Positions 14,726-45,157 of a DNA stretch of 64,000 nt are shown one piece after another (the stretch's first letter is position 1; every line of letters begins with the position of its first letter). The notes below the pieces were generated by a model that ran no database searches, was not told where the DNA came from, and saw only the letters and a program-made list of their open reading frames with translations. The stretch lies in IMG/VR virus record IMGVR_UViG_3300014613_000021, positions 1 to 64,000 of that record; one strand, written 5' to 3'. This DNA is from a virus (lineage: Duplodnaviria; Caudoviricetes). The translations under genes were made by a program, and so were the position numbers.

Positions 14726-14856
14726 ACACAACAACAAATATAAATCAGTGGGGTTGCTGGTGTCTTTTTAACCCACGTGCCTTGTAATTAAGTTTGTAGC
14801 GGTTTGAAAGTGCAAGGCTTCAAATCCCCACCGCTTCATATTTTCGACCGTTATAA
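14726..14856 (-). repeat. attC-like recombination site B3 (131 bp)
   Basis: Minus strand TTATAAC-GGTCGA-AAATATGAAGCGGTGGGG...CCCCACTGATTTATATTT-GTT-GTTGTGT. Confidence 0.75.
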
Positions 14857-40868: not shown

Positions 40869-40984
40869 TTGAGATAATTTTTTTTATTAATATTTAGTTT
40901 TATTTCACAATCTTTATAATTTTGTTATTCATTTCACTGTATTTTAATTAATTAAAATTTAAAAAAGTAATAAACGAAGTTAAC

Positions 40985-41009
40985 TACCACTGCATATTAG
41001 TTATAAGCC
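40985..41009 (-). repeat. Truncated attC-like site C1 (R'' and short left arm)
   Basis: Minus strand GGCTTATAAC-TAATA-TGCAG; R'' complements the cassette start GTTATAAGCC (41758-41767) exactly. Confidence 0.6.
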
Positions 41010-41783
41010 ATTAGCCCAACGCTCTGTTGCTTCCTTATATATTTCCGTGTCCAATTCGCTTAATATCCATTTTCTATTTAAACTATCTGCCACCTTACCC
41101 GTAGTTCCGCTACCACCAAAGCAATCAAATACAGTCTCGTTTTCATAAGAATAATATCGTATTACATTTTCCGCAAGTTTTTTTGGGAAGGATGCTGTGT
41201 GCCAACTTTTGGTTTCGGGTTGTATTTCCCACACGTTAGTTCGTTCATATTCACCGTTCACAAAGCTGTTATTTTGTAGTACCTTATCAATCAAAAAATT
41301 GGCTTTTTTCTTAAATACAAGTACATATTCTGTAACTATGTTCGGCTTGTATGCTACTGGCTTTCTATGTCTGTAAAACCCACCATTTCTATTCGCTGCT
41401 GCTCCATCAGGTTTCTTCCAAATTATATCTTCCAAAAACTCAAAGCCAATTTTCTCCATCATTGGTACAAAGTAGTAAGGTAATGGTATTCGGTAGCTTT
41501 GTTCACTACGTTTCTGCCTCTTTACAAGTACAGGGCTAATATTAATTACACACATTCTACTTGGTTTTAGCACTCGTTCAATCCCAAAAAAAACTTGCTC
41601 CATTTCGTGCATATAATCCGCTACACTACTATATTGGCTGTATTCTCTTGCATTGTAGTAAGGTGGCGAAGTGAACACTAAGTCTATGCTATTATCATCG
41701 AGTCTATTTATAGTTTCTTTACAGTCCTCATTCCAAAATTCCCCACGCTCAAATAACGGCTTATAACACGTGGTTAACGTCAT
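41001..41783 (-). CDS. Cassette-borne DNA N4C/N6A methyltransferase (beta class)
   Basis: FTSPPY, WHTASFP, FDCFGGSGTT; stop in R''; nearest in-frame ATG lies inside the upstream attC. Confidence 0.85.
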   Translation of the reverse strand: MTLTTCYKPLFERGEFWNEDCKETINRLDDNSIDLVFTSPPYYNAREYSQYSSVADYMHEMEQVFFGIERVLKPSRMCVINISPVLVKRQKRSEQSYRIPLPYYFVPMMEKIGFEFLEDIIWKKPDGAAANRNGGFYRHRKPVAYKPNIVTEYVLVFKKKANFLIDKVLQNNSFVNGEYERTNVWEIQPETKSWHTASFPKKLAENVIRYYSYENETVFDCFGGSGTTGKVADSLNRKWILSELDTEIYKEATERWANGL

Positions 41784-41891
41784 TGCCTTTTTCTTCGTTG
41801 ATAATTTCTTGGTTTTCCATGTTTTGTATTTCAATTAAAGTTTGTACTAAATTTAAGGTCGGCAACGAACGCCAACCGTCAAACATTATAG
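41761..41891 (-). repeat. attC-like recombination site C2 (131 bp)
   Basis: Minus strand CTATAAT-GTTTGAC-GGTTGGCGTTCGTTGCC...GGCAATGACGTTAACC-ACGT-GTTATAA. Confidence 0.7.
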
Positions 41892-42218
41892 CCAATATGA
41901 AATAAACTTACCAGCCATAAATAAAAGTCCGAATATTGCAATTAATCCTATCATTTCAACGCATTTATTTTGGAAGTGCTGTTTAAACGATAGCTTTGAC
42001 CTACTTACACATTTACCTGAATAAGATAAATGTATCCTTATCCAGTAAGTCATTTCAATTGCACTATCAATATTACCTTTGCAAAATTGAATAATCATCC
42101 ATCCTATTTCCCAAAATAAATGCTCAGCCCAGTTAAACATACTGGCTATAATACCGCATAAAACCAATAAAGGTTTCAGTGCATTTCGTAGGTTAGTAAT
42201 TCTATTTAAGTATTTCAT
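41886..42218 (-). CDS. Cassette-borne small membrane protein
   Basis: C-terminal hydrophobic helix; stop in R'' of C2; cassette start ATTATAGCCA complements R'' TGGCTATAAT. Confidence 0.65.
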   Translation of the reverse strand: MKYLNRITNLRNALKPLLVLCGIIASMFNWAEHLFWEIGWMIIQFCKGNIDSAIEMTYWIRIHLSYSGKCVSRSKLSFKQHFQNKCVEMIGLIAIFGLLFMAGKFISYWL

Positions 42219-42274
42219 ATATTGATAATTAAGTGTTTCAAATTCCTTTACTGGTCTTATGCAAAACGTTATAA
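42146..42274 (-). repeat. attC-like recombination site C3 (129 bp)
   Basis: Minus strand TTATAAC-GTTTT-GCATAAGACCAGTAAAGG...CCTTTATTGGTTTTATGC-GGT-ATTATAG. Confidence 0.7.
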
Positions 42275-42532
42275 AACAGTTTGCGAATATCGTTTCAGTG
42301 TTTTACCGCAAATCTGGCATTTATCAGTAAATGTTTTTTCAATCGGAATTGCACAATCGCAAACCGATTTTATAGCAGGTATAACACAATTTTTTGCTTG
42401 CGTTAGTGCTGCTATAATGTCATTGCAATTAATAAGCATTTCTGCTATTTGCTTTTTAGGCAACTTCATATACATTGCCATTTTTTCTTCTTTTGTCTGT
42501 TGTACTATCTGTAACATATTTTTAAGTTTCAT
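42269..42532 (-). CDS. Hypothetical protein with C-terminal Cys motif, stop in R'' of C3
   Basis: MYMKLPKKQIAEMLINCN...CDC..KCQIC..QTVL*. Confidence 0.65.
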   Translation of the reverse strand: MKLKNMLQIVQQTKEEKMAMYMKLPKKQIAEMLINCNDIIAALTQAKNCVIPAIKSVCDCAIPIEKTFTDKCQICGKTLKRYSQTVL

Positions 42533-44020: not shown

Positions 44021-44070
44021 ATATTGCCAGCAAGGGCTACTTCAAAGATACAAAATATTTAGGAACAAAG

Positions 44071-44235
44071 GTGAACTACCCACCCACGCCAGAGGCGATG
44101 GGTTTGGCTTCGGAAGTATGTGCAAATATACAAAAGTTTAAAGAAGAAACAATATTTATTTAAAATAATCATTAGCTTTGTATTGGGTCGCTTACATCCC
44201 CATAGCCTAAAGGCGTAGGGGTTTACGCTCAATTA
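44071..44235 (+). mobile_element. ORF-less IS200/IS605-type mini-element (both terminal hairpins, about 165 bp)
   Basis: Left hairpin identical to 3697-3728; right hairpin GCCTAAAGGC-containing palindrome followed by TTTACGCT; no ORF between. Confidence 0.6.
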
Positions 44236-44276
44236 GGTGAACTAAAAAAATTAAATTACAAAGAATAAGAAGTTAA

Positions 44277-44438
44277 TTATTTAGATGGGTAAGAATAAGA
44301 ATTAAATCGCTTATCTTGCGGATTGCCAAGACGTAAGTAATTGATGACCGTTTCTAATCTTATATTCTCCTTCTCTAATTCTTTTATTTTTTCTTTAAGT
44401 TCGATAATTTTCAATTCAAGAATTTCAAATTTATCCAT
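44277..44438 (-). CDS. Small coiled-coil protein (53 aa)
   Basis: Manual translation MDKFEILELKIIELKEKIKELEKENIRLE... Confidence 0.5.
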   Translation of the reverse strand: MDKFEILELKIIELKEKIKELEKENIRLETVINYLRLGNPQDKRFNSYSYPSK

Positions 44439-44446
44439 ATATTGTT

Positions 44447-45157
44447 TTATCTATCAATTGAATACGCCAATCTCAATGACCAATTTTGATTAAGTTTTTC
44501 AATATTGGGATTTGGATATTTATTCCAATATTCAACAGAATAAACACATTTTATTAACAGTTTTTTCAACAAATTGCAAGTAATTTGAAAATCACAATCA
44601 ATATCGTAATCAGAGAAATCGTAAATATTTGGTTTGTAAAAGAAAATCAACTCGGCGAAAATCCTGTCTGAAATATTTTGTTTCAACTTCGGTCGGATAG
44701 ATAACCGTATTCTGTTCTGTTCATCAATATCTGAAACAAAAACAGTCTTTTCATATAAAATAGCTGCACTAATAGAATATTTTGCCCTTTGCCTTTTTAG
44801 GAATAAATATTTTAGTCCAAATAAACCATAATTTTTACTCTTAATATCCTTTATTTCATTAACCCTATACTGGTATAATACAAACGGACTTAAGGTTGAT
44901 TGTGGCTTGTAATCAACCTGAAAATATATCTTTAAATCTCTATTTGTTACCCTATTCTCATTTTCTGAATATAGAAATTCACACCCCGTTGAATATTCAA
45001 ATAACGAATCCTTTCTTATAACCTCAAATAAACTGTTTAAATTCAAGTTTTGTATCTGTCCTAATGACAATCTACCTCCGGTTTCAAAACTTAGTTTAAA
45101 TTGAGAAAAACAAGGTATAAAGGAAAATAGCAATATAGATAAGAAAACAAACCTCAT
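44447..45157 (-). CDS. Signal-peptide-bearing outer-membrane beta-barrel-like protein (DUF481-like)
   Basis: Sec signal MRFVFLSILLFSFIPCFSQ; alternating amphipathic strands; terminal WSLRLAYS. Confidence 0.55.
   Translation of the reverse strand: MRFVFLSILLFSFIPCFSQFKLSFETGGRLSLGQIQNLNLNSLFEVIRKDSLFEYSTGCEFLYSENENRVTNRDLKIYFQVDYKPQSTLSPFVLYQYRVNEIKDIKSKNYGLFGLKYLFLKRQRAKYSISAAILYEKTVFVSDIDEQNRIRLSIRPKLKQNISDRIFAELIFFYKPNIYDFSDYDIDCDFQITCNLLKKLLIKCVYSVEYWNKYPNPNIEKLNQNWSLRLAYSIDR

Follow-up and report, generated by a model that had tools for sequence, protein, structure and literature searches.

How phages gain and lose small accessory genes, among them anti-restriction methyltransferases and ORFans, is mostly ascribed to illegitimate recombination followed by selection. 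The locus analyzed here raises the question of whether such genes can travel as defined units with joints of their own. It lies at about positions 41000-42274 of a 64,000-nt stretch of phage DNA (Duplodnaviria; Caudoviricetes), called the window, with which an 88.4-kb IMG/VR record (IMGVR_UViG_3300014613_000021) begins; this record is estimated to be 78% complete. The GC content is about 31%, and nearly every gene of the window is on the minus strand, as are all genes of the locus, which we call cluster C. An earlier note, made from the letters of this DNA, had described a methyltransferase gene and a membrane-protein gene of cluster C as cassettes separated by attC-like sites. We consider that in cluster C the phage probably carries a short row of gene cassettes resembling those of integrons, in an arrangement of the CALIN type (clusters of attC sites lacking an integrase). 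Comparison with other phage DNA shows two such cassettes in the window, where the membrane-protein cassette is intact and the methyltransferase cassette is a chimera joined at a box of its site.

Bacterial integrons provide the terms in which these sites can be described. An attC site is an imperfect palindrome of the order R''-spacer-L''-loop-L'-spacer-R', in which only the triplets AAC and GTT are fixed and structure is kept while sequence varies. The site folds as a single strand, the R'' box often holds a stop codon, and the start of a cassette is complementary to its own R''. The membrane-protein cassette of cluster C has the following parts.

41886-42270, minus strand: complete membrane-protein cassette (site plus open reading frame, ORF) of about 385 nt, the exact span of homology.
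42146-42274, minus strand: attC-like site of this cassette, with the TAAC box at 42271-42268, spacer at 42267-42263, L'' arm at 42262-42245, L' arm at 42173-42156, R' box at 42152-42149 and ATG 42218 in the loop; fold z score -2.5 (-4.2 for the copy in contig L017).
41886-42218, minus strand: ORF of a 110-aa membrane protein with two hydrophobic segments, as read from the sequence.
42138-42152, plus strand: start arm of the ORF body, pairing with 41885-41899 (15 nt at 93%).
41885-41899, plus strand: end arm of the ORF body, holding the stop and the box TATAA(T).

From 42271/42270 to 41886/41882, this block is 89% identical to two comparison contigs (L017 and L018) and 83% identical to two others (L019 and L020), and the flanks are unrelated. 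In L018 and L019 the block opens at the TAA of a different upstream gene. The earlier note had expected units of 0.38 and 0.76 kb. The first figure matches the 385-nt block, while the second covers only the ORF body of the methyltransferase, a unit that measures about 0.885 kb with its site. A search for an empty site through the neighbours of L017 and L018 found only an alternative gene in the slot (L026 and L028), with homology not resuming before the contig end.

Homologues of the 110-aa protein adjoin Dam-type methyltransferases (PF05869) in L019-L021, lying directly after them in two of these (L019:847-1644 and L021:2824-4033), whereas in the window the membrane-protein gene lies directly before an N6/N4 methyltransferase gene. 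There may be a functional link between the membrane protein and the methyltransferase. Relative to L019, window positions 42205-42245 contain a short tandem duplication, with a TTG-led and an ATG-led copy of one stretch of about 13 nt.

The methyltransferase cassette and the sequence that follows it are made up as follows.

41764-41890, minus strand: attC-like site before the methyltransferase, called the head, with the L'' arm at 41877-41861, L' arm at 41787-41772 and R' box GTTA at 41767-41764; z score -2.4.
41761-41819, minus strand: short reading frame of the head itself, from ATG 41819, out of frame with the methyltransferase and stopping at the TAA inside the R' box.
40998-41768, minus strand: methyltransferase body module, bounded by a 10/10 inverted repeat.
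41001-41783, minus strand: methyltransferase ORF, 260 aa from ATG 41783 or 277 aa from TTG 41834.
40869-41000, minus strand: spacer after the methyltransferase stop, with a TAAC box, no matching right arm and no stem; its fold is no better than that of shuffles.

The body (41768-40998) is 94.4% identical to six metagenomic contigs (L003-L008) over exactly that span, and 81-84% identical to four others (L009, L010, L012 and L013) with the same limits. The head has a different partner: 41890-41764 is 91% identical over 128 nt to the head of an unrelated cassette in L073, and the similarity is confined to that span. The two parts overlap solely in the TGTTA of the box. Since the head matches another cassette, the methyltransferase gene is a chimera joined inside the GTTA box. 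The ATG of the head is out of frame and its reading frame stops in the box; therefore, the methyltransferase must use ATG 41783 or TTG 41834. As the TAAC box of the spacer at 40869-41000 has no matching right arm, this spacer is a remnant or the end of the array.

The product is a methyltransferase of family PF01555 (E 2.5e-40; score 139 bits, with a gathering cut-off of 26.7; alignment to profile positions 1-220 of 221) and of phrog_67, with thousands of homologues. Matches in a tblastn search against isolated phages were all below 60% identity, and a scan of neighbouring genes revealed no restriction endonuclease. Orphan phage methyltransferases give protection from restriction, and this enzyme presumably protects the phage DNA in the same way. 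Protection against restriction is also argued for by Qi et al. (2023; PMC9892861). One of the six contigs that share the body, L003, differs from the otherwise identical L004 (1111-1131) by a 1.48-kb insertion (L003:207-1683) inside a 61-aa gene, with a sequence of about 14 nt repeated at both ends. The insertion encodes a 417-aa RRXRR and HNH protein, which we take to be IscB-like.

The head is also found with many other genes. Its 17-mer at 41861-41877, the 5' stem arm, is present in 60 viral contigs, and the complete element of approximately 135 nt in about 50 of these. The element is found in 43 distinct contexts, with one copy per locus, and the sequences upstream of it diverge at TAAC while those downstream diverge after GTTA. 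In other contigs, the reading frame of the head ATG is continued by ORFs of 62-116 aa, of which about two dozen are unrelated to one another. Unrelated small phage proteins thus share one N-terminus of 19-20 residues, because they are fused in frame to the head.

Pairwise BLAST among the loci places the joints at the same boxes. On the 5' side, every end of homology belongs to one of two classes, with the break either at the AAC box upstream or at the GTT of R', and on the 3' side homology ends 0-5 nt beyond the unit's own stop. Among the 30 pairs that share both site and body, the 5' end falls between -15 and +10 nt relative to the upstream TAAC in 23, and the 3' end falls at the body's own TAAC in 16. 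L039 and L058 share 284 nt at 99.6% identity and have no similarity outside this stretch. Site variants, as read from the sequences, track the downstream body and not the upstream flank. The boundary variation across relatives on which the earlier note had staked its proposal is therefore present, as homology blocks end within a few nt of all four predicted boundaries.

The ORF bodies also carry an inverted repeat of their own, GTTA-N10...N10-TAAC. Permutation tests covered 39-51 independent bodies. The first and last 14 nt or so of a body are complementary at 8.85 of 14 positions, compared with 6.64 +/- 0.23 for permuted partners and a maximum of 7.41 in 1000 permutations, and when the partner arm was searched freely, 38/51 bodies reached at least 12/14. 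This inverted repeat between start and end is a general and pair-specific rule for such modules. The flanks of one and the same site, in contrast, show a complementarity of 6.21/12 against 6.54 +/- 0.20 when permuted, i.e., the level of the consensus. This lack of specific complementarity between the flanks is what shuffled cassettes predict. As in integrons, a cassette opens with bases that can pair with its own R'', and neighbouring cassettes match only at consensus level.

Both repeats reported in the earlier note are present in the window. The methyltransferase arms, GTTATAAGCC (41000-41009) and GGCTTATAAC (41758-41767), form a perfect 10-nt inverted repeat, which becomes 13/14 when extended. 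The membrane-protein arms, ATTATAGCCA (41885-41894) and TGGCTATAAT (42143-42152), match at 10/10, or 14/15 when extended. The TAA stops also lie inside TAAC-type boxes as it had stated, at 41001-41003 for the methyltransferase, 41886-41888 for the membrane protein and 42269-42271 for the upstream 87-aa gene. The window contains 289 perfect 10-mer inverted repeats with a spacing of 100-1000 nt, about one per 220 nt, whereas Markov shuffles give 216 +/- 18. Since this is near chance level, the inverted repeats alone are no proof, and the significance of repeats and sites comes from the comparative data.

The two folded sites of about 130 nt (41761-41891 and 42146-42274) had been placed correctly in the earlier note. 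However, they are not mere gene separators, since the downstream gene begins inside each of them, with its start and first codons in the loop and 3' arm: ATG 42218 for the membrane protein, and ATG 41783 or TTG 41834 for the methyltransferase. In both folds, a short outer helix pairs the TAAC-side box with the GTTA-side box, and an asymmetric internal loop divides it from an inner helix of 16-18 bp. With RNA parameters, which credit G.U pairs, the z scores are -2.4 (41761-41891) and -2.5 (42146-42274). The architecture is that of attC, an imperfect palindrome of the order R''-L''-loop-L'-R' with AAC and GTT triplets, and the inner helix measures 13-21 bp across the cluster C sites and their relatives. 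Spacing is 4-7 nt on the TAAC side and 1-3 nt on the GTTA side, and the loops reach 50-90 nt. Each window site has one decayed box, i.e., ATTA for the membrane-protein R' (GTTA in relatives) and TAAT for the methyltransferase R''. With two sites within 0.5 kb and no PF00589 match in the record, cluster C corresponds to a CALIN whose sites are defined by structure and not by an attC covariance model.

This structure is kept among relatives. Eight of the nine sites folded have z scores from -2.0 to -4.8, and the L019 copy folds differently. The stems cannot be aligned by sequence. The arm sequences of L003 and L009 differ by a compensatory change, and L022 has the identical architecture with an unrelated stem sequence. 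A strict scan for sites of the cluster C design gave 16 matches compared with 2-7 in shuffles, and an Rfam search of the sites returned only a sub-threshold chance match. In L017 and L018, sites of this design with unrelated stems trail the membrane-protein gene and are wholly intergenic. An unbiased scan that used no motif found 19 sites on the sense strand and 2 antisense, with 20 G.T and 4 A.C interior mismatches. The strand count and the excess of G.T over A.C indicate that the gene strand is the folding strand.

A loop motif of 18-20 nt just 5' of the start codon (window 41834-41853; L022:736-755) is exact between unrelated sites and is found in 22 viral contigs (L095-L115). Similar strings occur in the loops of the window sites at 833-930 and 14726-14856. 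The motif may be a promoter or an initiation signal.

Collectively, the comparison shows discrete units, each a site plus a downstream ORF body bounded by TAAC, which are common to otherwise unrelated phage genomes. Their structure is conserved without conservation of sequence, and their bodies carry cognate end repeats.

The genes upstream of these cassettes place them within the phage genome.

42832-42587, minus strand: 81-aa gene, which opens the gene order of the region.
42269-42532, minus strand: g87, an 87-aa Cys-rich gene whose TAA stop lies in the TAAC box opening the membrane-protein cassette.
42370-42417, minus strand: hairpin inside g87 with a TAAC/GTTA pair; homology to the family ends just 3' of it (42374).

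On the gene strand, the order is 81-aa gene, g87, 110-aa membrane protein, N6/N4 methyltransferase, RNase T-type exonuclease, large terminase and DnaB-like helicase. The search for close relatives of the window phage gave one viral contig (L002, with a terminase 47% identical) and none among the metagenome contigs searched. In L002, the homologue of the 81-aa gene directly abuts the exonuclease. As nothing lies between them there, g87, the membrane protein and the methyltransferase are accessory insertions. A scan of host genomes with a profile of the membrane protein gave no match. Another accessory insertion is found at 44059-45157 of the window, where two small ORFs and a DUF481 gene (outer-membrane beta-barrel family) lie between conserved genes and are absent from L002.

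g87 has no Pfam or PHROG match. Its homologues (P0135-P0168) keep the first 50 or so residues, and their Cys-rich C-terminal tails are unrelated. At the DNA level, homology of 94-95% to L029, L033 and L034 is confined to 42542-42374. The gene thereby shows the same modularity, with a switch point at the hairpin within its ORF.

On the gene strand, a cassette starts at the C after the TAA of the upstream gene. Its site consists of a 4-7 nt spacer, a long L'' arm, a loop, an L' arm, a 1-3 nt spacer and GTTA, and the loop can carry the 5' leader of the gene, its start codon and the first 20 or so codons. The ORF body comes after GTTA, with its first 14 nt or so being the reverse complement of its last 14 nt or so and with TAA at its end. 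Joints lie at TAA|C and less often inside GTTA. A mechanism can be proposed from these features. The units may move as circles, in which the cassette ends would come together and restore on the sense strand a full hairpin of two helices. The cut at TAA|C might be made by a site-specific recombinase acting in trans, which the host or a co-infecting phage could supply, and an Xer-like enzyme is one candidate. In the modelled circle junction, the membrane-protein unit forms a 14-bp outer helix and reaches -42.4 kcal/mol compared with -31.1 kcal/mol when integrated (z -6.2 vs -2.5). The modelled junction of the methyltransferase unit reaches -38.4 kcal/mol compared with -31.1 kcal/mol integrated.

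The head is surrounded by typical early or nin-type genes (DnaB, ERF, NinG and a fusion of ParB with a methyltransferase). A 277-aa Xer-like tyrosine recombinase is encoded 1.2-1.6 kb downstream of the head in four to six loci (L045:3108-3941, also L057 and L084). It scores below the cut-offs for XerA, XerD and the integron integrase. We regard this protein as a candidate cassette recombinase, which is a lead and not a finding. A more specific proposal is that these phages have, in place of stray parts of bacterial integrons, an exchange system of their own, with folding of the gene strand, the gene start inside the sites, a cut at TAA|C and a trans-acting recombinase (for example the 277-aa Xer-like protein or a host Xer). 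We put this forward tentatively, as something that may well turn out otherwise. If true, such a phage-specific system would explain a large share of how small accessory genes turn over in phages of the Bacteroidota type.

Several points weigh against cassettes of the integron type. No tyrosine (PF00589, E <= 1), serine/resolvase (PF00239) or Y1-HUH (PF01797) recombinase was found in the 88-kb record, which is about 78% complete, and the record thus holds no IntI of a complete integron. With DNA energy parameters, both window sites fold no better than shuffles, because of their G.T wobbles, and the wobble bias on the sense strand fits mRNA structure equally well. Canonical integron cassettes do not have sites that overlap gene starts, nor is their unit a site plus a downstream ORF. 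The joints fall on stop codons, and these are places where mosaic boundaries tend to be left in phages by selection alone. In L026 and L028, similarity to the unit covers its first 10 nt and then breaks off, with the joint 7 nt beyond the box; joints are thus not in every case exactly at TAA|C. P12002L_attC1, the closest relative among the sites tested experimentally, is the one phage site that failed to recombine with the integrase IntI1 (PMC9892861). Furthermore, the comparison sequences are all metagenomic contigs, and no circle, empty site or recombination event was directly observed.

An alternative that we find rather unlikely is that the hairpins are regulatory RNA of the accessory genes and travel together with them, such as a 5' leader or start region that a long stem closes, an RNase III site or a means of translational coupling, and that the boxes provide micro-homology for homologous recombination, ordinary or relaxed, in the manner of the PeSLs of T4-type phages. 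The structure in the window is significant with RNA but not with DNA parameters, and the wobbles on the sense strand are G.U. The loop holds the start codon, many copies have what we read as a Bacteroidetes-type -7-like box, and the upstream stop lies 5 nt before the stem, a classic geometry of coupling. Recombination functions (ERF, NinG and YqaJ) are encoded in the neighbourhoods, and the PeSLs are a precedent for regulatory cassettes that can drive shuffling and mini-circles. However, in L017, L018 and Polaribacter phage P12002L the site lies entirely between genes, with the next ATG beyond R', so enclosure of the start is not required. Regulatory RNA also leaves the complementarity of body ends across 150-800 nt and the fixed TAAC and GTTA sequences unexplained. 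Different sites share just 4-5 nt, which is too short for homologous recombination to place the joints so precisely, and, unlike PeSLs, no cluster C motif is repeated in the window. A repeated PeSL-like promoter/terminator in the window was also considered, and was rejected as the three tested motifs occur once each.

The units could also be non-autonomous and transposon-like (of the miniature inverted-repeat transposable element or IS200/IS605 insertion sequence type), with GTTA...TAAC terminal inverted repeats, TAAC as target and a transposase located elsewhere. We judge this improbable. The bodies do carry terminal inverted repeats, TAAC flanks the unit on both sides, and the structure is biased to one strand as in single-strand transposition; such elements do circulate in this gene pool, as is evident from the IscB-like insertion in L003. 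Yet the inverted repeats bound the ORF body alone, while the co-inherited unit also takes in the upstream site, and no Y1 HUH transposase (PF01797) was found in the record. To our knowledge, IS200/IS605 elements have subterminal hairpins and lack terminal inverted repeats, which counts against this explanation as the cluster C bodies have them. In addition, the R''-L''-L'-R' design is that of attC, and related phage sites are substrates of IntI1.

Chance features of AT-rich coding sequence combined with ordinary mosaicism at gene borders, initially favoured on the repeat background and the DNA folds, and also in keeping with the position of both inner arms within coding sequence and the lack of motif enrichment in the window, were dropped as very improbable after the block boundaries and body-specific complementarity became apparent: permutations on 39-51 independent bodies never reach the observed complementarity, the boundary at 41768/41764 lies inside an ORF exactly at the GTTA box, the element of about 135 nt is conserved in about 50 contigs, and the stems show compensatory changes or full replacement.

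The kind of system that cluster C represents is known. Phages that have no integrase but carry attC-like cassettes, with methyltransferases as cargo, are already published (PMC9892861). Provisionally, three aspects appear to go beyond Qi et al. (2023), namely the comparative evidence that the units are mobile in discrete form, the gene start inside the site together with TAA|C joints and sense-strand folding, and the fusion of a single site family to dozens of ORFs. Joints defined by sequence and structure that recur in dozens of unrelated contigs point to a dedicated exchange mechanism, and the published phage CALINs would gain comparative evidence of mobility. The cassette rule could be used to flag cargo in viral metagenomes. 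It predicts sites of the form TAAC-spacer-stem-loop-stem-GTTA, body-specific inverted repeats, circles of about 385 and 885 nt, and activity of the sense strand.

Among the known systems that resemble cluster C, the phage CALINs match it in setting. In phage genomes, 17 integrase-less attC clusters with five methyltransferase cassettes have been described, and IntI1 recombined 5/6 of the phage attC sites tested (Qi et al., 2023; PMC9892861). That study relied on IntegronFinder and HattCI predictions and an IntI1 assay; it did not compare cassette boundaries across genomes, and the term 'start codon' is absent from its main text, so that gene starts within a site are no topic there (PMC9892861). 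The CALINs of these virulent phages (Qi et al., 2023) resemble cluster C in the lack of IntI, the N6_N4 methyltransferase cassettes and the hairpins with AAC...GTT boxes, whereas the cluster C sites overlap 5' coding ends. A link is given by P12002L_attC1 (NC_028924 29960-30100), which was called by HattCI only (PMC9892861) and is homologous to a window site outside cluster C. The window site at 548-484, one of four further window sites folded, forms a strong hairpin (z -5.7) and has the same R'' box and loop as P12002L_attC1, while the L arms differ and yet pair. P12002L_attC1 is located between two methyltransferase genes of P12002L, a genome with at least five gene-strand sites of the cluster C design.

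Bacterial integrons and cluster C have the attC-like palindrome, the fixed triplets, the stop in R'', a structure kept under varying sequence, the folding of a single strand and the complementarity of the cassette start to its own R'' in common. They differ in the unit, which in the canonical case is an ORF with a downstream attC and a joint at G|TT of R', whereas in cluster C it is a site with a downstream ORF and a joint at TAA|C. On the gene strand, the ORF of cluster C is therefore inverted relative to the usual cassette. Cluster C further differs in its asymmetric internal loop (4-7 vs 1-3 nt) and in loops of 50-90 nt that hold the start and about 20 codons. In the chromosomal integrons of Vibrio, near-identical repeats are found and, as with the head, many cassettes carry one type of site. 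Integrons use the folded bottom strand of attC (PMC9892861). For the geometry of a site plus downstream ORF to fit integrons, the gene strand has to be the 'bottom' strand that recombines.

The PeSLs of T4-type phages combine a promoter with a terminator, occur in many copies per genome and recombine by homology (Arbiol et al., 2010; PMC2839356). They resemble cluster C as small stem-loop modules that flank non-essential phage ORFs, with modular shuffling and possible mini-circles (PMC2839356). In contrast, the cluster C motifs occur once in the window, its sites differ in sequence save for short boxes, and its ORF bodies have inverted repeats of their own. Finally, the morons and mosaicism of lambdoid phages are similar in that accessory genes lie between conserved genes, with joints at gene borders and nin-like regions with NinG, ERF and DnaB. 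However, mosaicism by boundary sequences is a model that needs no structure or boxes, and it predicts neither the body-specific repeats nor the joints stacked at motifs that characterize cluster C.

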